Assembly (NCBI RefSeq): GCF_001735745.1
Contig: NZ_CP017260.1
Location: 870,001 to 902,000 of the forward strand
DNA from: Formosa sp. Hel1_33_131
Lineage (GTDB): Bacteria > Bacteroidota > Bacteroidia > Flavobacteriales > Flavobacteriaceae
Length of the DNA: 32,000 nucleotides
Direction of reading: 5' to 3'
The notes under the pieces were generated by a model that was not told the DNA's origin, ran no database searches, and saw only the letters and a list, made by a program, of their open reading frames with translations. Of this stretch, positions 280 to 30,888 are shown in pieces. Positions within the stretch are counted from its first letter, which is position 1; every line of letters begins with the position of its first letter. Made by a program: the position numbers and the translations under genes.

Positions 280-1293
280 TTAAGAACTTTGGGAGTCGCG
301 CATAAAATCTTCGGCTTTGTCCACCATGGCACTGCTGCCACAAATGAACGGCACCCGTTGATGCAACTCTGTTGGAGTGATGTCCATAATTCTTGAAAAT
401 CCATCACTGGCTTTACCATTGGCTTGCTCGGCGATGAACGCCATTGGATTACACTCATAAAGCAAGCGTAATTTTCCATTGGGGTTTTTGGAACTTGTGG
501 GGTATAAGTAAATCCCACCTTTGATCATATTTCGATGAAAATCGGACACCAACGATCCTATATACCGCGAGGTATAAGGACGGTCTCCCTCTTCCATTTG
601 ACAATATTTAAGATAATTTTTAATGCCCTGTGGAAAGTGAATATAATTCCCTTCATTAACCGAGTAAATTGTGCCATGCTCCGGAAACTGCATTCGCGGA
701 TGCGACAAATAAAACGTCCCAATTGCGGGGTTAAGAGTAAACCCATTGACCCCATCGCCCGTGGTGTACACCAACATTGTAGAAGTACCATAAATAATAT
801 AACCTGCCGCTACTTGTTCGCTTCCTTTTTGTAAAAAATCCTCTTCTTGAACAGGGGTTCCTACAGGCGTCACACGTCGGTAAATAGAGAAAATTGTTCC
901 CACAGATACATTTACATCAATATTGGACGACCCATCTAAAGGGTCCATCAATACGATGTATTTATTTTGATGATTTTGATCGTTGCTGTTAATCGCAATA
1001 AAACTGTCTTCCTCTTCACTTGCAATGCCACACACGATGTTTCGATTGACAAGGGTTTGAATAAATTTCTCATTGGCATATACATCCAATTTTTGTTGGT
1101 CCTCTCCTTGCACATTGGTATCGCCAGCAGTGCCTAAAATATCGACTAATCCAGCTTTATTTACCTCGTAATTGACCACCTTAGCAGCCAGTCGGATGGA
1201 GTTGATCAGTCGTGATAATTCGCCAGAAGTGTATTTGAAAGAGGATTGGTGTTCTATTATAAATTCGCCTAGAGTTTGGTGTTTTTGGGACAT
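280..1293 (-). CDS. fbp: Fructose-1,6-bisphosphatase class 1
   Basis: 337-aa ORF with the typical FBPase I N-terminus ([10 protein letters not shown]...[10 protein letters not shown]) and the metal/AMP-site blocks ([32 protein letters not shown]). Confidence 0.95.
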
Positions 1294-1411
1294 TCGAGTC
1301 TAATGTTTTTACAAATATCTGAATTTTTAGACAACTACAACGTTTTCGTTGCTATTTTATTAGATAATTTTAAAACGCTTTTGAGTATCTTTGAATTTGC
1401 AAATACAAACA

Positions 1412-1894
1412 ATGAACTATCACATTAGAAAAGCAGTAACAAGCGATATGAAACAAGTTTTAGACTTGATTACAGAACTCGCCATTTTTGAAAAAGAACC
1501 CGATGCCGTTGAAGTCACAGAAGCGGACTTAATCGCCAAAGGATTTGGAGACAGTCCCGAGTTTGATTGTTTTGTGGCAGAATCCGATCAAAAAGTAATT
1601 GGGATTGCGTTGGTTTATACCCGGTTTTCAACATGGAAAGGCACCGTGTTGCACTTAGAAGATTTGATTGTTTCGGAAAGCGTACGGGGTCACGGCGTTG
1701 GATCGGCTCTCTTAGATCAAGTGATTATTTATGGAAATGAAAAAGGCGTCAAGCGCGTCTGTTGGGAAGTCATTGATTGGAATACCCCAGCCATTGATTT
1801 TTATGAGCACAAGGGCGCCCGTGTGATGCGCGACTGGAATGTTGTGCAGTTAGACGCTCAAGGAATTAAAAATTATATCTCAAACATAAACTGA
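1412..1894 (+). CDS. GNAT family N-acetyltransferase, SSAT/diamine acetyltransferase-like
   Basis: GNAT motif A (VRGHGVGSALL) and the SSAT-like tail DWNTPAIDFYEHKGA. ATG at 1412 is preferred over the track's TTG at 1391. The stop overlaps the next start (cTGATGc at 1892-1896). Confidence 0.85.
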   Translation: MNYHIRKAVTSDMKQVLDLITELAIFEKEPDAVEVTEADLIAKGFGDSPEFDCFVAESDQKVIGIALVYTRFSTWKGTVLHLEDLIVSESVRGHGVGSALLDQVIIYGNEKGVKRVCWEVIDWNTPAIDFYEHKGARVMRDWNVVQLDAQGIKNYISNIN

Positions 1895-3144
1895 TGCAGT
1901 TATTTAAATTTGGTGGTGCTTCCGTAAAGGATGCAGAAGGAGTCAAAAATTTAGCCCATGTCTTATCGACTGTTGGCTACAGCAATACACTGATTGTGGT
2001 TTCGGCCATGGGAAAAACGACCAATGCCATGGAAACGGTGATTGCAAATTATTTTGATGCCAAACACCAATTGCAAAGCTCCTTACAAGACATTAAAAAA
2101 TTCCACAACAATATTCTCCTCGATTTATTTGAGAATGAACAACACCCCGTATTTGAAACGGTTGACAACTTATTTCAAGAAATTGTGCTATTTTTTGACC
2201 ACAACAAATCGCCCAACTACAACTTCGTATATGACCAAGTTATTGGGTTTGGAGAGTTGATTTCTACCACAATTATCAGTCATTATTTAAACAAAATTGG
2301 CATCACAAATACTTGGTTGGATGTAAGGACGTTTATAAAAACCGACAATTATTATCGAAATGCCAAAGTGCATTGGAACCAAACACAAGAGTTAATTTCA
2401 ACCCATGTGGACACTTCAAAATTAAACATCACTCAAGGATTTCTGGGAAGTGATTCTAACAACTTTACAACCACTCTTGGGCGTGAGGGGAGCGATTATA
2501 CCGCCGCAGTGTTTGCTTATTGTTTAAATGCGAATACAGTGACCATTTGGAAAGATGTCCCAGGGGTTCTCAATGCCGATCCTCGTTATTTTGAGAATGC
2601 AGAGTTATTGCATCAGATTTCCTATACTGAAGCTATTGAGCTTTCTTATTATGGCGCGTCTGTAATTCACCCCAAAACGCTGCAACCCCTACAGCGCAAA
2701 GAGATTCCTTTGCATGTCAAGTCCTTTTTAAACCCAGAGAATGAAGGTACTACCGTTGGAAAAGATTTGACTCTGAACCCAAAAGTGCCTTGTTATATTT
2801 TAAAAAATAATCAAGTTTTAATTTCACTTTCATCACTTGATTTCTCATACATCGTCGAAGATAATATTAGCCATATCTTTAGTTTACTACACGATTACAA
2901 GATGAAAGTCAGCATGATTCAAAATTCAGCGATTAGCTTTTCAGTGTGTATAGAAAATAACTATGACAATCTGGAACGCTTGTTATTACATTTAAAGGCA
3001 AAGTATAAAGTGTCGTCGCACAAAGCGGTTAATCTCTATACTATTAGACATTACAACCAACAAGCAATCCACGACATGGAAGCCGAAAAAGAAATTCTTT
3101 TAAAGCAAATCACTCCCGAGATCGTACAGATTATAACCAAGTAA
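1894..3144 (+). CDS. lysC: Aspartate kinase
   Basis: 416 aa. N-terminal kinase motif KFGGASV...VVSAMGKTTN, a TTLGREGSDYTA block and C-terminal ACT-like region. Confidence 0.9.
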   Translation: MQLFKFGGASVKDAEGVKNLAHVLSTVGYSNTLIVVSAMGKTTNAMETVIANYFDAKHQLQSSLQDIKKFHNNILLDLFENEQHPVFETVDNLFQEIVLFFDHNKSPNYNFVYDQVIGFGELISTTIISHYLNKIGITNTWLDVRTFIKTDNYYRNAKVHWNQTQELISTHVDTSKLNITQGFLGSDSNNFTTTLGREGSDYTAAVFAYCLNANTVTIWKDVPGVLNADPRYFENAELLHQISYTEAIELSYYGASVIHPKTLQPLQRKEIPLHVKSFLNPENEGTTVGKDLTLNPKVPCYILKNNQVLISLSSLDFSYIVEDNISHIFSLLHDYKMKVSMIQNSAISFSVCIENNYDNLERLLLHLKAKYKVSSHKAVNLYTIRHYNQQAIHDMEAEKEILLKQITPEIVQIITK

Positions 3145-6250: not shown

Positions 6251-6568
6251 ATGAAAAACCTAAAAACACTGGAACGCTTACAGCAATTGCATTTAAGAAT
6301 TAAAAACGAAAATACAGGGGCACCAAAACAATTAGCAGACTTAATGCAAATTAGTCAGCGCTCTGTGTATATACTAATGAATAAGCTAAAGGATTACAAT
6401 GCAGAAATTAGCTACAGTAGGAATAAAGAAACCTATTACTACACGAACGCCTTTGATTTACAAGTGGCTATTTCTGTAACCGTACTAAACGGAGATGAGG
6501 TTACCGAAATTTTTGGTGGCAGTTATTTTTTAGGAGAAAATTTGCACCTTGCAAGGAAGTTGCAGTGA
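6251..6568 (+). CDS. Small HTH-domain protein (putative locus regulator)
   Basis: 105 aa. A helix-turn-helix-like stretch (PKQLADLMQISQRSVYILMNKLKD) sits directly between the HlyD gene and the peptide genes. Confidence 0.5.
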   Translation: MKNLKTLERLQQLHLRIKNENTGAPKQLADLMQISQRSVYILMNKLKDYNAEISYSRNKETYYYTNAFDLQVAISVTVLNGDEVTEIFGGSYFLGENLHLARKLQ

Positions 6569-6586
6569 ACACGTTTATATTTGGAA

Positions 6587-6626
6587 TATCAAAACAATAT
6601 TAGATGCATATGGTAGCGTTTTGATA
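6587..6626. promoter_or_regulatory. 9-bp inverted repeat (TATCAAAAC / GTTTTGATA, 22-nt spacer) between the HTH gene and peptide gene 1
   Basis: Arms at 6587-6595 and 6618-6626 are perfect reverse complements. A perfect Bacteroidota -7 box, TATATTTG, lies at 6576-6583 just upstream. No U-run follows, so it is more likely an operator or leader structure than a terminator. Confidence 0.3.
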
Positions 6627-6683
6627 CGGATTGTAAAAAGTTTACAACCAAAAAAATTAATATAAACTCAAATTTTAAAAATT

Positions 6684-6869
6684 ATGAAACAATTAGAAAA
6701 TTATGGTGTTCAAGCGTTGAACACTGAAGAACTCAAATCTACTGAGGGTGGGTTTTGGCAGTATGTAGTCGCAGGGGCTTTGTATGTCATGTCAGAATGG
6801 GATGACATTTCTGCTGGATTTAATGATGGAATTAATGGTAACGACTACGATTATAATCCCTGTCCTTAA
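6684..6869 (+). CDS. Double-glycine-leader peptide precursor 1 (bacteriocin-type signal sequence)
   Basis: MKQLENYGVQALNTEELKSTEGG|FWQYVV... The leader fits the GG-leader / Bacteroidota bacteriocin-type signal pattern (L-7, E-8, L-12, V-15, GG at -2/-1). A C39-ABC transporter and a HlyD gene are in the same locus. Confidence 0.8.
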   Translation: MKQLENYGVQALNTEELKSTEGGFWQYVVAGALYVMSEWDDISAGFNDGINGNDYDYNPCP

Positions 6870-6875
6870 AACTTT

Positions 6876-7001
6876 ATGAAAGTTAGAAGAAAAAATATAT
6901 TATATATTTTAATTTTAATTTTTCTTTTTGGTTTTTTATCCAATTATGACAAATTAAAAGAGTCATTTATTAAAATTTTAAATTATTTATCATGGAACTA
7001 A
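6876..7001 (+). CDS. 41-aa single-pass mini membrane protein (module family KKNI..FLF..YDxxKE)
   Basis: Hand-translated: MKVRRKNILYILILIFLFGFLSNYDKLKESFIKILNYLSWN*. It starts 7 nt after the peptide 1 stop and overlaps the peptide 2 start. It aligns without gaps to the C-terminus of the 100-aa protein at 7812..8114. Confidence 0.5.
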   Translation: MKVRRKNILYILILIFLFGFLSNYDKLKESFIKILNYLSWN

Positions 7002-7156
7002 TAGAATTAAATAAGAATGAATTACTAAACATTAACGGAGGTGATGAACCAGCATATGGGATAGGATATTATATTGGAGCTGGTCTAAATGCAATTGACG
7101 AGGCTTTAGGAGAGTTTTTCTTTGGAGATCATCCTTGGTGGACTACACATCCCTAA
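6992..7156 (+). CDS. Double-glycine-leader peptide precursor 2 (54 aa, below the ORF-track cutoff)
   Basis: Hand-translated: MELIELNKNELLNINGG|DEPAYGIGYYIGAGLNAIDEALGEFFFGDHPWWTTHP*. The leader has I-4, L-7, E-8, L-12, L-15 and GG. Confidence 0.7.
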   Translation: MELIELNKNELLNINGGDEPAYGIGYYIGAGLNAIDEALGEFFFGDHPWWTTHP

Positions 7157-7174: not shown

Positions 7175-7683
7175 ATGGCTAGAATTATCTTGTTGTCGCT
7201 TTATATTAAAAAATTAATTAAATTGAGATTACTAATTAACTTCATTTCAGTAATTGTTCTTTTACTAATATTTGAATTTGGCTTTAATCCCCTTTGGGAT
7301 TACTTATATGAAATATTTGATATAAAAAAAACTTCGTTTTATGGAAACGAAAAAACTGCTTTTTTTTATTTTCTATAATAATTATAGCTCCTATCGTTGA
7401 AACACTTGTCTTTCAAGTTTTAATTAAATATTTACTAGACTTCACATCTTTACGAAGCATCCAAAATAAAATTATTTATTACTCTATTATTTCTGGAGTG
7501 TTATTTGGCTTAACTCATAACTATTCGATTGTTCACATTATAAAAGCAACAATAATGGGGGTGATTTTCATGCTTTTTTATCTTAAAACATTGAACAAAA
7601 AAAAACTTATGATAACCATTATTTATATTTCAACAACACATGCTTTTTGGAATTTGTTTGTTTGGTTTTGCAGAAATATTTAA
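7175..7683 (+). pseudogene. CPBP/Abi-family intramembrane protease-like (bacteriocin-immunity-type) gene, interrupted by a frameshift at a T8 run
   Basis: ORF 7175..7378 supplies the N-terminal TM helices and ends ...EKTAFFYFL*. The frame 2 nt ahead (equivalent to -1) continues from 7360 as FFLFSIIIIAPIVETLVFQ...FGLTH...HAFWN, which gives CPBP motifs 1-3. One extra T in the run at 7360-7367 would fuse the two parts. Confidence 0.65.
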
Positions 7684-7686
7684 AAC

Positions 7687-7794
7687 ATGAAAAATAAAAA
7701 AACTCTTATCATTCTAGCTGGTATTGTACTTTTAGTCATTGGATTTACTTTAGGACGGGCATTCGTTTCCTATATGTTGGATGCATTAGGGTAA
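7687..7794 (+). CDS. 35-aa single-pass mini membrane protein
   Basis: Hand-translated: MKNKKTLIILAGIVLLVIGFTLGRAFVSYMLDALG*. It starts 4 nt after the CPBP stop and has the same basic-N-terminus plus TM layout as its neighbours. Confidence 0.4.
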   Translation: MKNKKTLIILAGIVLLVIGFTLGRAFVSYMLDALG

Positions 7795-7811
7795 ACACGA
7801 AACAACAAATC

Positions 7812-8114
7812 ATGAAGAAAAAAATATTCTCAAGTTTTTTTATTGCTTTAGGTCTAATTTACATAAAAAGTGCCTTAACACCCTTGATTTGTATTGATGA
7901 ACCCAAAGACTATGAACTTTTTTTTGGTTGGAAAACCACAAAAAATATATTTATTCTTGTAAAATTAGTCATAGGAGTACCGCTCGTCATCTTCAATGTA
8001 AAAGAATTATTGAAACATAAAAACACCAAAAAAAACATCATTTATCTAGTTCTATCCCTATTCCTTTTTGGATTACTCGGGTACTATGACCGCATAAAAG
8101 AATTATTATTTTAA
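7812..8114 (+). CDS. 100-aa membrane protein built from about three mini-TM modules
   Basis: Three basic-patch + TM + KE-tail units: MKKKIF..., KTTKNIFILVKLVIGVPLVIFNVKELL and KKNIIYLVLSLFLFGLLGYYDRIKELLF. Confidence 0.6.
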   Translation: MKKKIFSSFFIALGLIYIKSALTPLICIDEPKDYELFFGWKTTKNIFILVKLVIGVPLVIFNVKELLKHKNTKKNIIYLVLSLFLFGLLGYYDRIKELLF

Positions 8115-8123
8115 AAAAATATT

Positions 8124-8231
8124 ATGAAAAAACCATACAAAAAAAACATCTTCATTATTGCATTAACGTTTCTGTTCTTTAGCTATTTATTTTCTCATTG
8201 GGACTGTTTCAAAGAAGGATTAGGAATTTAG
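8124..8231 (+). CDS. 35-aa single-pass mini membrane protein (same module family)
   Basis: Hand-translated: MKKPYKKNIFIIALTFLFFSYLFSHWDCFKEGLGI*. Its last 10 codons form the left copy of the 32-bp direct repeat. Confidence 0.5.
   Translation: MKKPYKKNIFIIALTFLFFSYLFSHWDCFKEGLGI
8199..8230. repeat. Left copy of a perfect 32-bp direct repeat (TGGGACTGTTTCAAAGAAGGATTAGGAATTTA)
   Basis: The identical 32-mer recurs at 9997..10028. Confidence 0.9.
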
Positions 8232-8465
8232 AAATTACGCATTCTCTAGCACTGTCTTTATTTACACATTAATTACATAAACTCGTTGTGCATTTTAATG
8301 AAATTCGTCAGTTCGAGTGGATTTTACGATTGAAAATACAAGGGATAGTAGTCCCCCGTCTTTTTTAGGGGCTTTATCTATTTTTTTGAGTATGCCAACC
8401 TTAAATTTTGTACAGTTTCAATATGTAGTTTTAGACAACCCAATTATTATTGGTTTCTCTTTTTA

Positions 8466-8519: not shown

Positions 8520-9851
8520 AATCAATAAATACTTTGTTCCTTTTTTCTCGCCAACCTTCTTTATAACTCTATATTCAATCAATTCATTTAAATCTCTCAA
8601 AGCGGTTCTATCTGTTATTTCAAATAGGTTTTGATATACTCCAGTTGTAATTTGGTTATTCTCTTTTAAATATTCAATTGCTTTTAATTGTCTTTCATTC
8701 AAAAATAAAGATGATAAGAACTCTGGACTGGTTCTGTTTTTATATAAAGTAATAGCAACACCACCTGTCAACTCTTCAATTTTAGGTTCAAGTAATCCTG
8801 CTTTTTCACATTCTTCAATAATTTTAATTGTTCCACGCCCCCAAGATTCTACAAAGCCTGCTCTAAAAAATGTTCTTGCAATAATTGGGTTTCTAGTCAT
8901 AGATTTATGGTCTACTTTTAATTTTTCAGGAGTTAATGGATTTAATAGCTCTCCCTGATTCCAAAACATAATTCGGTCAGGATAAACACTAATTTGTATT
9001 GGAGAATTTTCATAAGTTCTATGGGTAAACGCATTTAGTAATATTTCTCGAACTGCTTCGTATGGATATTCATAGGTTTCAATTCTTTGAATTCCCTTGT
9101 AACTAATAGAGCTGTCTATAAATCTTGTAAATAGAATTTTAAGTGTTTCATCAAGTTGTTCAAAGAGATTTCCTTCTTCCACAACTTCTTGAGAAAGTAA
9201 TTCTGAACTTGATTTTCCAAATTTTCCAATCTTAAGAAAGGAACTCACATAAAACCTCAAAGGTTGTATCCCAAATAGCAAGATTGCTGACCTAGTTAAT
9301 TTCCCTTCATTCATTATCAATAAATTCTGAAAAATAGTTTTTGAATCAAGGTTCACTGTTTCAAGCGGTAGCCTTTTGGAAGCAATACCAGACTTAACAA
9401 ATCGTTTTACCGTAGCTTCATTAATATCGTCAAAAGATGCATTTTCTTCTTCAATACTATCCCAAGTCCTCCCCGTTTTTCTTAACAAAAATTCAGTCAG
9501 TTCATTTCCTCGAAGTTCTTGATTGGTACTGCCAGAACGGTAATAATATTTTCCGTTATATGAAATACCATTATTATAGGGTTTGGTAATAATCTCTATA
9601 TAGTATAAGTCGTTTTCCTCATGTAAATTAACATCACAAAGCACGCCAAGTTTACTAGAAATTTTATTCGGCAACTCGTCCATGAGTTTTGTATACTTAT
9701 CGACCCCCACTACATTTCCAATATCATCTTTTCCAATATACAAGACACCTCCGTTGGAATTGGCAAATCCACTAATCCATTGCAGATATTCATCTCGCCA
9801 AGATTGTTTCCATTCTATGTTTTGTTGTTCGGGCATATTATTATATAACAA
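8517..9851 (-). CDS. AlbA_2 (Schlafen-like) / HATPase_c_4 / C-terminal wHTH protein (often mis-annotated as a RecG-like helicase)
   Basis: 444 aa. N-terminal IEWKQSWRDEYLQWISGFANSNGGVLYIGKDD (AlbA_2 signature), central REILLNAFTHRTY...PDRIMFWNQG (HATPase_c_4-like), and a C-terminal winged-helix region (ITTGVYQNLFEITDRTALRDLNELI). Confidence 0.8.
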   Translation of the reverse strand: MLYNNMPEQQNIEWKQSWRDEYLQWISGFANSNGGVLYIGKDDIGNVVGVDKYTKLMDELPNKISSKLGVLCDVNLHEENDLYYIEIITKPYNNGISYNGKYYYRSGSTNQELRGNELTEFLLRKTGRTWDSIEEENASFDDINEATVKRFVKSGIASKRLPLETVNLDSKTIFQNLLIMNEGKLTRSAILLFGIQPLRFYVSSFLKIGKFGKSSSELLSQEVVEEGNLFEQLDETLKILFTRFIDSSISYKGIQRIETYEYPYEAVREILLNAFTHRTYENSPIQISVYPDRIMFWNQGELLNPLTPEKLKVDHKSMTRNPIIARTFFRAGFVESWGRGTIKIIEECEKAGLLEPKIEELTGGVAITLYKNRTSPEFLSSLFLNERQLKAIEYLKENNQITTGVYQNLFEITDRTALRDLNELIEYRVIKKVGEKKGTKYLLI

Positions 9852-10028: not shown

Positions 10029-10100
10029 ATCTCTAAAAAAACCTACAGTGCACTTTTTTTGCAGTGAAGTCGATTACTATTGCTTGTAAACGCATTTATC

Positions 10101-12254
10101 ATGGCTTCCATAAAAATAAAACAACACGACATTACCGATTGTGGTGCCGCCTGCCTTGCCTCTATTGCTGCGCACTACCATCTAGAGCTGCCCATTGCGC
10201 GTATTCGTCAATATGCAGGCACTGACAAAAAAGGGACTAACGTTCTTGGACTCATAGAAGCCGCAGAAAAACTAGGGTTTGAGGCCAAAGGGGTCAAAGG
10301 TGTTTTAGACAGTCTTTTTAAAATTCCCAAACCAGCCATCGCTCATATTATTGTAAAAAAGAAACTGCACCATTATGTAGTCATTTATGGTGTTTCCAAA
10401 AGCCACATCACGGTTATGGATCCTGGTACTGGAAAGATAGACAAAAAAACACATGAGGCATTTCTTGAAGAATGGACAGGGGTACTCGTCATTTTACAAC
10501 CTAATGAAACCTTTAAGAAAGGAAATGACAAAATCTCTGTTTACAAGCGATTTTGGTTTTTACTCAAACCTCATAAATTTGTGTTGGCACAAGCCTTTTT
10601 TGGCGCCATCGTATATACCTTATTGGGGTTTTCTACTTCTATATACATTCAAAAAATAACGGATTTTGTGCTCGTCAGTGGAAACACAAAATTACTGAAT
10701 TTATTGGGTGTTATCATGTTAGGGTTACTGCTGCTCCAATTTGTTATTGGCATCTACAAAGATGTTTTTCTCATCAAAACAGGACAACAAATTGACGCCC
10801 GACTCATATTAGGTTACTACAAACACCTTCTCAAATTGCCACAGTCCTTTTTTGATACCATGCGTGTTGGAGAAATCATTTCACGGATCAATGATGCAGT
10901 GAAAATTAGAACTTTTATCAATGGCGTTTCCTTATCCCTGACCGTGAATGTTCTCATTCTCTTATTTTCATTTGGGCTGATGTTTTTCTATTATTGGAAA
11001 CTAGCGCTTATCATGTTGCTCGTCATTCCTGTATATGCAATGATCTATTTTATCATCAACCGCTTAAACAAAAAAGTAGAACGGAAACTAATGGAACAGG
11101 GCGCAGAGTTAGAAAGTCAACTCGTGGAATCGCTTAATGCCGTAAGTACTATCAAGCGTTTTGGATTGGAAGACTTTGCTAATATAAAAACGGAAACCAA
11201 GTTTATCAATTTACTTAAAATTGGGTATAAATCTGCTTTGAACTCTGTGTTTTCAGGCACAAGTTCATCATTTGTAGCGCAACTATTCACTATCATTTTG
11301 TTATGGACAGGATCCTATTTTGTAATAGACAGAGAAATTACAGCTGGAGAGTTATTGTCTTTTTATGCGATAATCGGTTACTTCACAGGGCCCGCAGCAA
11401 GCCTTATTGGAGCCAATAAACAAATTCAAAACGCTCTTATTGCTGCAGATCGACTGTTTGAAATTATGGATTTGGAACGGGAAAGCTCAGAAAACAAAAT
11501 TTCGCTAACGCATGAAAAAATTGGGGATATAAACTTCAACAATGTCAGTTTCAGGTATGGAACGAGAGTACAAGTTTTTGAAAATTTTAATCTCAAAATT
11601 TCAAAGGGTGAAATAACCGCGATTATAGGAGAAAGTGGTTCTGGAAAATCAACTCTTATGGCGTTACTGCAAAACGTTTATAAAATTCAAAAAGGACAAA
11701 TTAGCATCGGAGGTTTAGATATCAATTATATAGACACAAACAGTTTAAGAAACATCATAAGCGTAGTACCTCAAAAAATTGATTTGTTTGCCGGAAATGT
11801 CATTGAGAATATTGCCGTTGGTGACTTTAACCCAAATATGGAACACATCTTAGGAATTTGTAAGTCAATAGGGATTTTAGATTTTGTTGAAAATCTTCCA
11901 AATGGATTTGAAACATATCTAGGCGAGAATGGGGCCTCACTTTCTGGCGGTCAAAAACAACGTATCGCTATCGCAAGAGCATTATATAAAAATCCCGAGA
12001 TTTTAATCTTGGACGAAGCAACATCTTCACTAGATAGCAAATCAGAAAATTATATTCAAAAGACAATTCTATCTATGCGAGAGAAACACAAGACAGTGGT
12101 CATTATTGCGCACCGATTAAGTACAATTGTGAATGCTGACAAAATTATTGTTTTAGATAAAGGAACCGTAGTTGAAAGTGGCACACACACAGACCTGTAC
12201 AAACAAAAAGGGCGGTATTATGAATTGTGGCAGGCGCAAAGCCCATTGCTTTAA
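10101..12254 (+). CDS. Peptidase C39 domain-containing ABC transporter (GG-leader processing exporter)
   Basis: N-terminal C39 domain (QHDITDCGAACLASIA; HHYVVIYG; MDPG), a six-TM ABC membrane domain, Walker A GESGSGKST, signature LSGGQKQR and Walker B ILILDEATS. ATG at 10101 is preferred over TTG at 10080. Confidence 0.95.
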   Translation: MASIKIKQHDITDCGAACLASIAAHYHLELPIARIRQYAGTDKKGTNVLGLIEAAEKLGFEAKGVKGVLDSLFKIPKPAIAHIIVKKKLHHYVVIYGVSKSHITVMDPGTGKIDKKTHEAFLEEWTGVLVILQPNETFKKGNDKISVYKRFWFLLKPHKFVLAQAFFGAIVYTLLGFSTSIYIQKITDFVLVSGNTKLLNLLGVIMLGLLLLQFVIGIYKDVFLIKTGQQIDARLILGYYKHLLKLPQSFFDTMRVGEIISRINDAVKIRTFINGVSLSLTVNVLILLFSFGLMFFYYWKLALIMLLVIPVYAMIYFIINRLNKKVERKLMEQGAELESQLVESLNAVSTIKRFGLEDFANIKTETKFINLLKIGYKSALNSVFSGTSSSFVAQLFTIILLWTGSYFVIDREITAGELLSFYAIIGYFTGPAASLIGANKQIQNALIAADRLFEIMDLERESSENKISLTHEKIGDINFNNVSFRYGTRVQVFENFNLKISKGEITAIIGESGSGKSTLMALLQNVYKIQKGQISIGGLDINYIDTNSLRNIISVVPQKIDLFAGNVIENIAVGDFNPNMEHILGICKSIGILDFVENLPNGFETYLGENGASLSGGQKQRIAIARALYKNPEILILDEATSSLDSKSENYIQKTILSMREKHKTVVIIAHRLSTIVNADKIIVLDKGTVVESGTHTDLYKQKGRYYELWQAQSPLL

Positions 12255-12349: not shown

Positions 12350-13429
12350 ATGCCTTTTTCACCCAATTACACGATTACAGTTGCTATTGCACAAAATTTA
12401 GTGGCCATTGAAACTGGTAAAAAACAATTTGAATCGATTCCTATGAACGCGATGCTCTTAAGCTCGCTACGTAAATCCGCACGATTGGCCTCGACGCACT
12501 ACTCCACTCAAATAGAAGGAAACCGTTTAACGATGGAGCAAGTTACAGATGTTGTTTCAAAAAAAGCAGAGGGATTTCCTGGACGGGAACGCGATGAAAA
12601 AGAGGTGGTCAATTATTACAAAGCGTTAGAATATCTTGAAACAAAAAATAACAAGCCATTAACCGAAACAACCATTCAAACTATACATGGATGGGTTTTA
12701 AGTGGTAGAAAGAGCGCAAGCGCGTATAGAGAAGGTCAAAACGTAATTAAAGATGGATTGTCGGGCGCTATTGTTTATATGCCCCCCGAAGCTTCAGAAG
12801 TGAGTGGTTTGATGAAAGCACTTGTTTCTTGGATTGACATCTCTTTAAAAAAGGGAAAAATTCCGGTCCCTATTATAGCTGCATTGGCACATTATCAATT
12901 TGCGAGCATACATCCCTACTATGATGGAAACGGAAGAACAGCTCGCTTGATTACCAACTATATTTTACATTATGGGGGCTATGGACTGAAGGGCATCTAT
13001 TCTTTGGAAGCTTATTATGCAAAAAACTTACAGGGCTATTACGATGCTTTGGCTGTTGACGATATTCCCAATTATTATATGGGAAGAGCGGAAGCGGATC
13101 TTACAAATTTTCTGGAATATTTTATGAAAGGAATGGCGATTTCTTTTACGAACATTGTGGCATCATCAAAAGAAAATAGCAGCCCATCACTACAAGACAA
13201 CAGCAAAACATTAAGAGAGTTATCTGCCAAGCAACGCATGGCTTTGGATCTATTTGTAAACCAAAAAGAAATTACGAATACTGATTTAGCACAGCACCTA
13301 GGTATTTCTAAAAGGAGTGCTGCCACTCTGCTAAAAAAATGGTTGGAAAACGAATTCCTTATAATTGGAAATCCTTCCAATAGAGCACGATCGTATCGAC
13401 TCAACCACAAATGGGAACAATTATTTTAA
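12350..13429 (+). CDS. Fic/DOC family protein, class II (N-terminal inhibitory helix), with a C-terminal wHTH
   Basis: Fic motif HPYYDGNGRTARL, inhibitory motif STQIEGN ([S/T]xxxE[G/N]) near residue 52, and a C-terminal HTH (ITNTDLAQHLGISKRSAATLLKKW). Confidence 0.9.
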   Translation: MPFSPNYTITVAIAQNLVAIETGKKQFESIPMNAMLLSSLRKSARLASTHYSTQIEGNRLTMEQVTDVVSKKAEGFPGRERDEKEVVNYYKALEYLETKNNKPLTETTIQTIHGWVLSGRKSASAYREGQNVIKDGLSGAIVYMPPEASEVSGLMKALVSWIDISLKKGKIPVPIIAALAHYQFASIHPYYDGNGRTARLITNYILHYGGYGLKGIYSLEAYYAKNLQGYYDALAVDDIPNYYMGRAEADLTNFLEYFMKGMAISFTNIVASSKENSSPSLQDNSKTLRELSAKQRMALDLFVNQKEITNTDLAQHLGISKRSAATLLKKWLENEFLIIGNPSNRARSYRLNHKWEQLF

Positions 13430-22538: not shown

Positions 22539-24542
22539 TTAGTTCTTAATAAATGGCAAAGAAATGGATGCATTGTCTGTTGCTATTTTAATGAAATACA
22601 TCCCCTTACTTAGGCTAGAAGTATTCACAGCTAAATCGTTGAGTTCTCCAATAGATTGTTGAAGAACAATTTGACCTAACATATTATAAACCTTATACGT
22701 ATCAGGTAAGCTGTTTGAAGCGCCTACTTTGATGTAAAGCACGTTTGTTGCTGGATTTGGATAGAGCGTAATTTTGCGGTCCAATAAATAATTTTCAGTA
22801 CCCAGTGTGTTTACGGTTGTGAAGGAAACACTTTCTTGAGCTCCAAATTCTCCACCGGTCGCAATGACATTTGAATTACTGTCTGTTAGTGTGTAGCTGC
22901 CCGCTCCCCAACCACAACATATACCATCACCCTCAGAATCATAAATTGTAAAAGAGTAACATCCTCCTGTAGGGACATCAAAGGTGTGATTGTAAGTGGT
23001 TTCATTACCATATACATTTATTTCTCCTGAGTATAAAATGGTATCATTACTGTCTTTAAAATCCCACGATGTTTCGTCTCCATATTCATCGGTCAATAAT
23101 GTCAGGTTCACAGTAGCCGTGTCAACAAAGACAGTGAATGCAGTAGAGACCACTGTATTATCAACTGTGTTTTCATCTGTGAATCCATTTGGACTTAATA
23201 ATTCTACTACTAATGTATGACTGCCTCCAGAAACATTCATCGTAGGAAGCGTGACGGTATCACTTTGGTTTTGGAATAGAAATCCACTCCAAGACTGTGT
23301 GGCTGCAGTGTCCTCGTCTATTGCGTAACTGATCACAGCAGAGGTTAAGGTTGTAGTTCCATTATTAGTCACAACCACTGTTGGCGCAAATGTTGTTGCG
23401 CAGTCCACAAGGTTTAAATTGTCTAGTTCTATGGCCCCATCAATCTCATATACAATGGCTGGCGAACAGACTGTTGAAGCGCCGAGTTCCATACGTCTTG
23501 GCGAGTTGGCTAAAACGGCTTGAATCCTTGTTTTTTGGTCTGCCGTAAAGGTGTCCATACAAGCATCATTTGTGTAGTCCATATAGTTTTCAACCATATC
23601 AGCTCCCAAACCATCCGAAGGACAAGAGTCTACCGTTGGACATCCCCCATTAGAAGTTGTAGCATCTGGGGTATCTGCACAAAAATCGTCATTGGAACAG
23701 TTTCCAGAATCGCCCCAAATATGTCTCAAGCCGAACCAGTGCCCTAGTTCGTGTGTCAAGGTTCTTCCTAATCCATAACTACCACCTAGGGGATTTGGAC
23801 TCGCAACAGAACCTACTGAGGAGGACAAAATAACTACTCCATCTGTGTTTGCTGGTTCAGGGGGGAAGTTTAGGCCTGACAACCCTGAGCTAACAGGGAA
23901 TTGAGCATACCCTAAAAGAGGACTTTCTAAGTTAGCCAACCAAATATTCAAATAACGGGTTGGATCCCATTGCGTTGCTGGTTTTATTGTGTTTTCGAAA
24001 TCTGACATTGAGAAAGGTCCGTCATCATAATCTGTAATTCTATTGATTCCTGGTTCAAACATGGTCACTTCGGTCTCGTTTTGTTGTGCTAAGCAAAACC
24101 GTACCTCTGTATCTGTAGCGACTGTGTAAGAACTGCCTGCACCATTGCCAAAATCTAAATTTAATTGATCTATTTGTGCTTGAATGACAGCCTCGGACAG
24201 GTTCTCATTCCCAACTTCATCGGTTAAAATATGAAATACCACTGGTAGTGTCGTTATAATAGAAACACCATTGGATCTTTGCGCTTTAACCGCTTCAACC
24301 TTTGGTGCTAACCAGCTTTCAAATTCTGCGTTTGTAGCCCGTTCTGGATATAATGCTTTAAGGTATTGTTCGTACTCAACGGATGCACATCGAATAACGC
24401 CCGATTCGTCAAGACTTTTAATGTTGGCATCGGTGAGTTCCTGACCAAATAAAGTCTGGGTGTTTGTACTTGTTTGAGCAAAAGAAATAGCGGTTGTAGA
24501 CATTAAAGCCATTAAAATGACTTTTAAAGTGATTTTTTTCAT
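22539..24542 (-). CDS. M43 (pappalysin/cytophagalysin-like) zinc metalloprotease with a T9SS C-terminal sorting domain
   Basis: Signal peptide, zinc motif HELGHWFGLRHIWGD, a Cys-rich region, and C-terminal LYPNPATNVLYIKV...GMYFIKI (T9SS type A CTD). Confidence 0.85.
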   Translation of the reverse strand: MKKITLKVILMALMSTTAISFAQTSTNTQTLFGQELTDANIKSLDESGVIRCASVEYEQYLKALYPERATNAEFESWLAPKVEAVKAQRSNGVSIITTLPVVFHILTDEVGNENLSEAVIQAQIDQLNLDFGNGAGSSYTVATDTEVRFCLAQQNETEVTMFEPGINRITDYDDGPFSMSDFENTIKPATQWDPTRYLNIWLANLESPLLGYAQFPVSSGLSGLNFPPEPANTDGVVILSSSVGSVASPNPLGGSYGLGRTLTHELGHWFGLRHIWGDSGNCSNDDFCADTPDATTSNGGCPTVDSCPSDGLGADMVENYMDYTNDACMDTFTADQKTRIQAVLANSPRRMELGASTVCSPAIVYEIDGAIELDNLNLVDCATTFAPTVVVTNNGTTTLTSAVISYAIDEDTAATQSWSGFLFQNQSDTVTLPTMNVSGGSHTLVVELLSPNGFTDENTVDNTVVSTAFTVFVDTATVNLTLLTDEYGDETSWDFKDSNDTILYSGEINVYGNETTYNHTFDVPTGGCYSFTIYDSEGDGICCGWGAGSYTLTDSNSNVIATGGEFGAQESVSFTTVNTLGTENYLLDRKITLYPNPATNVLYIKVGASNSLPDTYKVYNMLGQIVLQQSIGELNDLAVNTSSLSKGMYFIKIATDNASISLPFIKN

Positions 24543-29846: not shown

Positions 29847-30888
29847 ATGAAAAGAATTTTAATACTCACCACCATTCTAATCTTCGCCTGTAGTAGTGAT
29901 AGCGAGGGTAATCCTTGTATTTACGAGCCTACATTAACTACACAAGCTGTTACTGATATAACAGAAACATCAGCTACTTTAAATGGCGTTATAAGTATCG
30001 TATCAGAGAATTGTGACGTTCCTAATAATACTGAACAAGGTTTTGTCTATAGAAGACACTCAAGTCAATGTTAATGGGACTAATATTTCTACAACTATTG
30101 AGGGTTTAACGCCTAACACGACTTATTATGTAAGGGCTTTCTTGACTAACACTTTAGGAGAATTTTACAGTAATGAAGTTAGTTTTTCTACTGAAGAAGA
30201 GATAACAGGAAGTTGTGATGGAGCGCCTTATCCAAGTATTGTTTACGGAACTCAAGAATGGACTGTTGAGAATGCTTGCCACACTACTTATAGAGATGGC
30301 ACGCCTATACCACAAGTTACAGATAATGATGAATGGCGTTATTTAACTACAGGGGCTTGGTGTTATTATGGAAACGACCCTACCAATGAAGTGTTGTATA
30401 ATTGGTATGCGGTAGCAGGTATTCACGATACAGACCCTAACACACCTAACAAAGAATTTGCACCAGAGGGCTGGCACGCACCAAGTAATCTTGAGTGGAC
30501 TACCCTTGAAAACTATCTTATAGCAAATGGTTATAATTATGATGGTACAACCACAGGAAATAAAATAGCTAAGTCAATGGCATCAACAACAGGATGGTTA
30601 AGCTCAACAACACTAGGAACTCCAGGCAACAACCAAAGCACTAACAATAGTAGCGGCTTTAACGCCTTCCACACGGGCACTCGCTCATATTATGGAACAA
30701 TGAGCCCGGGTGATGATTTTGAACCTGAAGAATATGTTGTATTTTGGTCTTCAACTGGTTTTAATAATAATATTGAAAATTATGGTGCTTTTAGTCGCAA
30801 CTTGTACTACGACAGTAGTAGTCTCGAAACAGCTTACATAGACTATAGTGCAGCACACGGCTTCCCTGTTCGTTTAGTCAAAGACTAA
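29847..30888 (+). pseudogene. Lipoprotein with an Fn3-like domain and a Fib_succ_major (TIGR02145-type) domain, split by a +1 frameshift near 30041-30050
   Basis: ORF 29847..30074 (lipobox IFAC|SSD; ...ATLNGVISI...NNTEQGFVY) continues in the +1 frame as SIEDTQVNVNG...LTPNTTYYVRAF, then GTQEWTVEN...YNWYAV...PEGWHAPSNLEWTTL...GFPVRLVKD. Confidence 0.7.

Follow-up and report, generated by a model that had tools for sequence, protein, structure and literature searches.

Within a stretch of 32,000 nucleotides (hereafter the window), which an exact-sequence look-up placed in genome CP017260 of Formosa sp. Hel1_33_131 (Flavobacteriaceae), two small genes, FORMB_08010 and FORMB_08030, encode peptides with a double-glycine (GG) leader near a gene for an ATP-binding cassette (ABC) exporter with a C39 peptidase domain. 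Judging from sequence and context, we favour with modest confidence the reading that the two peptides form an unmodified, microcin-like two-peptide bacteriocin with cognate immunity, for which killing, synergy and target are predicted. Peptide 1 (alpha-type, FORMB_08010, 6684..6869, forward strand) has 61 amino acids (aa) and consists of a 23-aa leader, MKQLENYGVQALNTEELKSTEGG, and a 38-aa core, FWQYVVAGALYVMSEWDDISAGFNDGINGNDYDYNPCP. Peptide 2 (beta-type, FORMB_08030, 6992..7156, forward strand) has 54 aa, with a 17-aa leader, MELIELNKNELLNINGG, and a 37-aa core, DEPAYGIGYYIGAGLNAIDEALGEFFFGDHPWWTTHP. The coordinates and translations of both open reading frames (ORFs) had been given in an earlier note written from the DNA letters alone, and direct reading confirmed them. 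The same note had called the 54-codon ORF invisible; it is indeed missing from an ORF list with a 60-aa cut-off but is annotated in GenBank as FORMB_08030. Between the two genes lies FORMB_08020 (6876..7001, forward strand), a 41-aa single-pass membrane ORF whose stop overlaps the start of peptide 2. All three are annotated as “hypothetical protein”. The cassette sits between the genes for a HlyD-type adaptor and a winged-helix protein on one side and the C39-peptidase ABC exporter gene on the other.

To the extent that sequence can tell, both are double-glycine-leader peptides, real and beyond chance, which the exporter beside them would cleave and secrete. Every reading-frame segment of 30 aa or more in the window, 467 in all, was scored with hidden Markov models (HMMs) of 93 long and 67 short GG leaders, taken from other Flavobacteriaceae genera with the families of peptides 1 and 2 excluded. 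The match covered the full length of the long-leader model for peptide 1 (40.0 bits, E 7.8e-12) and of the short-leader model for peptide 2 (25.5 bits, E 2.1e-7), while the next best segment had an E of at least 0.19, so that only the two peptides were picked out. These matches and the exporter in the locus support the assignment to a C39-ABC system proposed earlier. The leader consensus put forward with it (hydrophobic residues at -7, -12 and -15, Glu at -8, and GG) is correctly placed in both peptides: peptide 1 has L-7, E-8, L-12 and V-15 before its GG with Thr at -4, and peptide 2 has I-4, L-7, E-8, L-12 and L-15. The curated models gave weaker signals. The suggested check with TIGR01847 (bacteriocin_sig) turned out negative, with 12.6 bits for peptide 2 against a cut-off of 15.7 (E 0.18) and no match for peptide 1. 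TIGR03949 (class IIb, lactobin A/cerein 7B) gave 20.9 bits for peptide 1 and 20.4 for peptide 2 against a cut-off of 21.5, and NF038035 (lactococcin G-alpha type) 19.5 bits against 37; the matches to these two models lie mostly over the leader.

The cores have the composition that the earlier note had reported, each with six Asp or Glu, no Lys or Arg and eight Phe, Tyr or Trp. The net charge is about -6 and the pI about 4.05 for each, and the predicted sizes are 4.3 kDa for peptide 1 and 4.1 kDa for peptide 2, with calculated monoisotopic masses of 4304.84 and 4125.89 Da when unmodified. Glycine makes up 10.5% and 16% of the cores, respectively, and there is one Cys in peptide 1 and none in peptide 2. 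A GxxxG-type motif had been noticed in peptide 2 (GYYIG); it is present, but not in peptide 2 alone, since peptide 1 carries an invariant GFNDG. Each motif is invariant in its own homolog alignment, as G22xxxG26 (AGF.DG) in peptide 1 and as G8xxxG12 (GY.IG) in peptide 2.

Conservation of the GG site and of the reading frames in homologous loci had been named as a check on the prediction. Both reading frames are kept in divergent homologs, at 56-91% amino-acid identity, and the GG is invariant in 42 relatives of peptide 1. Compared with five divergent loci the proportion of synonymous differences (pS) was 0.48-0.82, near saturation, while that of nonsynonymous differences (pN) was only 0.15-0.31; both ORFs therefore code for protein and evolve under purifying selection. 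At least eight independent lineages have the alpha gene together with the beta gene: the window species (L001-L004), L006 (GCA_024449685.1), L007, L008-10, L012 (a Flavobacteriaceae metagenome-assembled genome, MAG, in GTDB), L091, L092 and L093, the last being the most divergent lineage with the pair. They co-occur in every homologous context that has enough flank. Each lineage also has a Lys-rich single-pass membrane ORF of about 35-41 aa, and a CPBP-family protein of about 155-169 aa follows the pair wherever the contig extends that far. The order is alpha, membrane ORF, beta, CPBP in seven lineages and alpha, beta, membrane ORF, CPBP in L093; since the position of the membrane ORF differs there, the constant unit is the alpha/beta pair.

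This gene order bears directly on a different reading, which we hold to be unlikely, in which the locus would encode two independent, non-synergistic one-peptide bacteriocins, peptide 1 with the 41-aa protein for immunity and peptide 2 with the CPBP. Such a reading would draw on the order peptide, small membrane ORF, peptide, CPBP kept in seven lineages, on a single-peptide cassette in the same island (cassette B of L003) and on distant relatives of peptide 1 that may lack a nearby beta peptide (L094). It sits poorly with L093, where the membrane ORF stands downstream of directly neighbouring alpha and beta genes, and with peptide 2 itself, which has a short leader of the “second-gene” kind and no promoter module of its own. 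Furthermore, sister cassettes (A and D in L003, and those of L085, L018 and L055) contain two adjacent GG peptides and one CPBP, and neither narrow family was found singly where flanks were available. The 41-aa ORF is conserved in L006, L007, L008, L091, L092 and L093 with pN below pS, and from its sequence we regard its product as a candidate immunity or accessory protein. It is one of a family of tiny single-pass membrane ORFs rich in Lys (KKNI[I/F]Y..L..FLFG.L..YD..KE) that recurs both inside cassettes and at their ends, and in the window is seen at 6876..7001, in the C-terminal third of 7812..8114 and at 8124..8231.

Comparison with same-species contigs of one metagenome series showed that the locus is a strain-variable array. 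There is one cassette in L004, as in the window, three in L001 and L002 and four in L003, and the flanking genes are the same across L001-L005 and the window (for example L003 7400..14900). Each cassette opens with a module of about 160-290 bp that is 92-96% identical between copies, as seen before cassettes A, B and D of L003; module copies lie in L003 at 7392..7552, 8850..9010 and 11560..11720. A TAnnTTTG motif and inverted repeats are found within the module, as are the first ~70 nt of the leader (MKQLENYGVQ[A/E]L...GG), and past the GG the cassette sequences diverge completely. The other cassettes of the Formosa island carry the same leader on unrelated, mostly acidic GG peptides. Near-identical copies of the small membrane ORFs found in the window at 7687..8231 stand after each cassette in L003. 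In pairwise alignments the break-points of insertions and deletions fell within the repeated modules of promoter, leader and small membrane ORFs, which by sequence is the architecture of recombining toxin/immunity cassettes. Cassettes would then be gained and lost by recombination between the repeated modules, so that co-occurring strains would differ in their toxin/immunity sets. A seeming pseudogene of peptide 1 in L005 (P0006) is more likely assembly noise than decay, as that contig has 20-25 indels relative to its sisters.

In the window the putative promoter-plus-leader module extends over 6560..6753 on the forward strand. Its TAnnTTTG motif, TATATTTG at 6576..6583, fits the Bacteroidetes -7 consensus and is followed by the inverted repeat TATCAAAAC-N22-GTTTTGATA at 6587..6626. 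A TGCAA-N5-TTGCA element (window 6550..6630) is also found in L012 and L091 as CTGCAAG..TTTGCAGTGAAC. We propose that these elements may serve as promoter and as operators bound by the winged-helix protein. An Rfam scan of the locus gave zero matches and hence no known RNA element in the leader region of about 100 nt.

The negative charge of the pair had been considered atypical for C39-ABC cargo. To place it among its kin we turned to relatives of the ABC transporter (575 matches, from which 80 loci were fetched), those at 70-82% identity belonging to Flavivirga, Tenacibaculum, Aquimarina, Polaribacter, Lutibacter, Sinomicrobium, Eudoraea and others. Small ORFs that fitted a regular expression for the GG-leader consensus numbered 213 on the transporter strand and 3 on the opposite strand, the latter count serving as a built-in control for false positives. 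The non-redundant set comprised 195 GG-leader peptides from 72 Flavobacteriaceae loci. Their predicted cores have a median charge of -1 and are negative in 122 cases (63%); 33 have a charge of -5 or below, 46 lack Lys and Arg, and 27 are at least 20% aromatic. This distribution is itself centred below zero, and the window pair lies in its acidic, aromatic tail and is not odd among its relatives. The pair departs from the Gram-positive class II bacteriocins, for which alone the claim of atypical charge holds, and not from its own kin. Most microcins are likewise neutral or anionic (PMC10233263). The closest GTDB genome, MAG HE327_NSB022 (L011), has an ABC protein 96% identical to that of the window and, from position 192, the same leader joined to a different, cationic core, VGWLRVLARLAAAAAAVHELGCDGTHRYYNQGGIRVL, of charge +2. 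With a different core beside a near-identical exporter, cargo must turn over much faster than the exporter diverges.

Beyond the narrow family, the core of peptide 1 belongs to a large group. An alignment of 42 diverse relatives has just three invariant columns, all of them Gly, two at the cleavage site and one in a WDDIxxG motif; Met1 and Glu-8 are nearly invariant. With the family profile, an exhaustive HMMER search returned 420 cluster representatives (E <=1e-3). Of the best 150, at least 27 share a hydrophobic helix-[S/N/D][E/N]WDD[I/F]xxG motif, and the median predicted core charge of these 150 is -2. In an AlphaFold2 (AF2) model of peptide 1 based on the 42-sequence alignment the leader helix spans residues 14-20, and after a break at the GG come core helices at 25-37 and 39-50, giving a helix-kink-helix followed by a disordered acidic tail (predicted local distance difference test, pLDDT, 78-86 over residues 11-50, mean 75). 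The core of peptide 2 is homologous to a wider beta-type family (GYxIGxxIGxxI; hhalign 92.9%, E 3.6e-7), whose members have charges from about +1 to -6 and are the second GG peptide of pairs in Tenacibaculum, Flagellimonas and others, and also in Formosa cassette D. A corresponding link between the family of peptide 1 and the alpha-type partners of this wider family could not be established (hhalign 44.8%).

We found no significant similarity of the pair to Gram-positive two-peptide bacteriocins (lactococcin G-alpha by BLASTP, and PlnK). A possible likeness to lactococcin G-alpha, through WDDIxxG in peptide 1 and GIG in peptide 2, was dropped when BLASTP returned no alignment. PlnK (2keg) was the top PDB match of the peptide 2 profile by way of GIGYxIG, with an E of 0.05-0.07 that is at the level of unrelated proteins, and we treat it as a lead.

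The proteins around the array fit an export system. FORMB_08090 (10080..12254, forward strand) is a peptidase-containing ABC transporter (PCAT), with 557.3 bits to TIGR01193 against a cut-off of 523.85 and an E of 3e-36 to Pfam Peptidase_C39, and it has the catalytic-type motifs DCGAAC, which contains the Cys, and HYVV. The mechanically called ORF starts at a TTG at 10080 and has 724 aa, while gene calls on identical contigs start at an ATG and give 717 aa (MASIKIKQHDITDCG...); the ATG at 10101 is the likely true start. FORMB_07990 (5075..6238, forward strand) is a HlyD-family membrane-fusion protein (MFP), that is a periplasmic adaptor (Pfam HlyD_3 56.6 bits, cut-off 22.2), which also matches NCBIfam TIGR01843 and TIGR01000, both under their own cut-offs.

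Between the adaptor gene and the cassette lies FORMB_08000 (6251..6568, forward strand), a 105-aa winged-helix DNA-binding protein annotated as “DNA-binding protein”. It matches HTH_11 weakly, and AF2 models its residues 1-70 as a confident winged helix. In about 55 of about 80 fetched Flavobacteriaceae loci, tblastn placed its gene beside that for HlyD or for the ABC protein. The protein is thus a core component of most related loci and probably their regulator. Its C-terminus ends in an invariant ...VLxNNEVTxIFGGSYF... that resembles a GG leader. It is probably not one, as it fails the leader HMMs, the residues after the GG are invariant and AF2 gives a low-confidence beta-hairpin; the motif might serve in dimerisation or in docking to the exporter.

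A conserved regulator gene directly upstream raises the question of whether the peptides are exported signals, that is pheromones, inducers or regulatory peptides sensed by the winged-helix protein or by an unlinked sensor. GG-leader/PCAT export is also used by streptococcal pheromones (PMC6363468), and a CAAX protease has been implicated in the processing of a signal peptide in S. anginosus (PMC9298176). Nevertheless we consider a signalling role improbable. The window contains no gene for a histidine kinase or other receptor, and with 37-38 aa and hydrophobic helices the cores would be unusually long pheromones. Each cassette comes with a CPBP of its own, and co-occurring strains differ in the cassettes they have, a pattern that is the hallmark of toxin and immunity genes.

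The CPBP itself (CPBP/Rce1-like intramembrane protein, 7175..7683, forward strand) is the candidate immunity protein. In the window its gene is split by a run of eight T at 7361..7368, where same-species metagenome copies (L003, L004) have nine. The intact protein of these copies has 169 aa and matches the Pfam Rce1-like family with 38.2 bits against a cut-off of 22.4. The Hel1_33_131 genome was obtained by 454 sequencing (PMC6246565), and with nine T in the metagenome copies a homopolymer error is the likeliest cause of the split. CPBP/CAAX proteins are recurrent bacteriocin immunity factors (PMC9298176, citing Kjos 2010), and those in bacteriocin loci have been shown to be immunity factors, processing enzymes or receptors (PMC9298176). 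As CPBPs elsewhere also process peptides or act as receptors, immunity is the commonest role and not the sole one. The short CPBPs that follow peptide pairs, of about 150-170 aa, have P-[LIV]-[LIV]-E-T-x-x-x-Q in place of the catalytic EExxxR and keep FGxxH and HxxxN (for example L003 7951..8436 and 10492..11001, L006, L007, L008, L085 9063..9545 and L093); the longer CPBPs of the same islands keep EExxxR.

The split gene could also be taken as a sign of a decaying locus. Together with binding of Ca2+ or another metal by the acidic, Asp/Asn/Gly-rich tails, and with precursors modified by enzymes encoded elsewhere, this makes up a last group of explanations that seems to us very improbable. The tail of peptide 1, DGINGNDYDY, is certainly rich in D, N and G, and most homologs keep a Cys close to the C-terminus. 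Yet selection on both peptide ORFs is purifying, every metagenome copy has an intact CPBP, and what shifts the frame in the 454 assembly is a difference in homopolymer length. The earlier note had stated that no modification enzyme is present in the locus, and this holds across the 32-kb window, which encodes no peptide-modifying enzyme; the cores also lack the Cys/Ser/Thr-rich pattern typical of ribosomally synthesised and post-translationally modified peptides. For the metal-binding and signalling roles that had been suggested beside the antimicrobial one we found no positive evidence. The two-peptide antimicrobial reading, which had been raised as one option among these, gives the best fit to the context of strict co-occurrence, one CPBP per cassette and variable arrays.

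We propose the following mechanism. One promoter module would drive an operon of peptide 1, the 41-aa ORF, peptide 2, the CPBP and the small membrane ORFs. The C39 domain would recognise the amphipathic leader helix and cut after Gly-Gly, and the ABC transporter, the HlyD adaptor and an outer-membrane channel would export the 4.3- and 4.1-kDa cores. The two helical GxxxG cores might then act jointly on the envelope of close Flavobacteriaceae relatives, the producer being protected by the CPBP and possibly also by the 41-aa membrane protein. Because the cores are anionic, seawater screens electrostatics and there is an outer membrane to pass, entry into the target cell is more plausibly by a specific receptor or by divalent-cation bridging, and probably not by electrostatic attraction.

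Several observations weigh against this proposal. The cut-offs of the curated bacteriocin HMMs are reached by neither peptide. The CPBP is frameshifted in the deposited genome, that of the window cassette, of the cassette-C type, has ETLVFQ in place of the canonical EExxxR, and such proteins may also process peptides or serve as receptors (PMC9298176). The membrane ORF between the peptide genes would also fit two separate bacteriocin-immunity pairs, and an outer-membrane channel gene is absent from the locus. The narrow alpha/beta family is rare, with 4-7 clusters among 5.8 billion proteins, and a scan of Joint Genome Institute (JGI) metagenomes with the peptide 2 alignment found only three loci, all identical to the window. 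A scan of genome contigs with the peptide 1 alignment found nothing, its patterns being too strict, as one GTDB MAG (L012) does carry the pair. In the supplementary proteomes of PMC6246565, FORMB_07990, 08000, 08080 and 08090 are listed at low abundance and 08010, 08020 and 08030 never, which is weak evidence against the proposal; since cores free of Lys and Arg give no tryptic peptides, the absence of the two peptides says little. Finally, the case for a toxin is one made from sequence and context.

Set beside known systems, the Formosa locus combines the gene logic of class IIb bacteriocins, the physico-chemistry and export of class II microcins and a cassette array like that of the pneumococcal blp regions. 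With class IIb systems (plantaricin EF/JK, lactococcin G) it shares two small GG-leader peptides per operon that always co-occur, helical cores with one GxxxG each (GFNDG, GYYIG), a CPBP/Abi-type gene directly downstream and, as predicted here, C39-ABC export and cleavage with an accessory protein, as well as near-threshold scores to TIGR03949 and, in the GIGYxIG of peptide 2, a motif-level resemblance to PlnK whose E is at chance. It differs in that the Formosa cores have a charge of -6 and no Lys or Arg whereas the mature class IIb peptides are cationic, in the 41-aa membrane ORF between the genes, in falling short of the curated HMM cut-offs, and in the producer, a diderm member of the Bacteroidota with a HlyD adaptor and an outer membrane to cross. 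The class II microcins (MccV, MccE492, MccH47) are likewise Gram-negative peptides of less than 10 kDa with a GG leader, PCAT and MFP export and adjacent small immunity genes. Their cores are hydrophobic, neutral to anionic and independent of a positive charge (PMC10233263); the Formosa cores are anionic and partly hydrophobic. The known ones are however single peptides, whereas here there is a pair with a CPBP as immunity candidate; Gly makes up 10-16% of the Formosa cores against a microcin mean of 23.8% (PMC10233263), the Formosa peptides have no siderophore-attachment region, and several cassettes are arrayed on the chromosome of a member of the Flavobacteriia. Microcin families were absent among the NCBIfam and Pfam matches at E <=1.

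Among GG-leader peptide toxins of Bacteroidota only the bacteroidetocins, which are unrelated to the Formosa peptides, have been characterised (PMC6671954). They share with the Formosa system the phylum, the GG leader, a locus that encodes a C39-ABC transporter and, on the reading favoured here, a small unmodified peptide as toxin, but are single, disulfide-bonded, class IIa-like peptides from a four-gene locus with a thiol oxidoreductase, a protein with five transmembrane segments and no immunity gene (PMC6671954). The Formosa locus has no oxidoreductase (none in the window), at most one Cys per peptide, two peptides, a CPBP and a HlyD protein. The pneumococcal blp regions too are strain-variable arrays, in which GG-peptide genes are interleaved with immunity genes of the CPBP/CAAX and small membrane types; recombination shuffles the array, and conserved export genes lie on its flanks. 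They differ in phylum and in regulation, the Formosa locus apparently having the 105-aa winged-helix protein and not a pheromone/two-component system, and the Formosa cargo is mostly anionic. Our literature search found no paper describing this Formosa peptide system.

The remaining features of the region are as follows. Three small membrane ORFs on the forward strand (7687..7794, 35 aa; 7812..8114, 100 aa; 8124..8231, 35 aa) form a cassette-end or junction module. The first of them is the window copy of a second type of 35-aa ORF (MKNKKTLIILAGIVLLVIGF...) that stands after each CPBP, and the tiny membrane ORFs matched no family in Pfam or NCBIfam. A terminator-like hairpin lies at 8342..8355. 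Between the array and the ABC gene the reverse strand encodes a Schlafen/AlbA_2-type protein (FORMB_08080, 8517..9851; AlbA_2, HATPase_c_4 and a helix-turn-helix, HTH), and directly 3' of the ABC gene there is a Fic-domain protein with a C-terminal HTH (12350..13429, forward strand). Same-species contigs keep both genes, and L004 has a second Schlafen-like paralog further upstream (1045..2496). The remaining genes of the window are housekeeping genes; an M43-family metallopeptidase with a C-terminal sorting domain for type IX secretion (22539..24542, reverse strand) and a Fib_succ_major-domain protein (30013..30888, forward strand) are unrelated to the peptides.

The Hel1_33_131 clade of Formosa recurs in North Sea spring phytoplankton blooms (PMC6246565). 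We raise as a tentative possibility, on the doubtful side, that these are the first two-peptide bacteriocins to be described in a Gram-negative, an anionic alpha/beta family of marine Flavobacteriaceae that would kill diderm relatives in seawater in a receptor-dependent or cation-bridged manner, unlike cationic class IIb peptides, whose action is driven by charge, with cassette exchange driving antagonism between bloom Formosa strains. A conserved exporter with a variable peptide/immunity array points to peptide-mediated antagonism within small-genome planktonic populations, a habitat where diffusible toxins are usually thought to be ineffective. If the peptides proved inactive, the locus would be another uncharacterised island for the export of GG peptides. 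If they are active, two-peptide bacteriocins would be extended to Gram-negatives, and the pair would provide a tractable, unmodified and synthesisable model of how anionic peptides attack diderm cells at the ionic strength of seawater. It would also open up a flavobacterial peptide family of 420 cluster representatives that has as yet no curated model and no characterised member.

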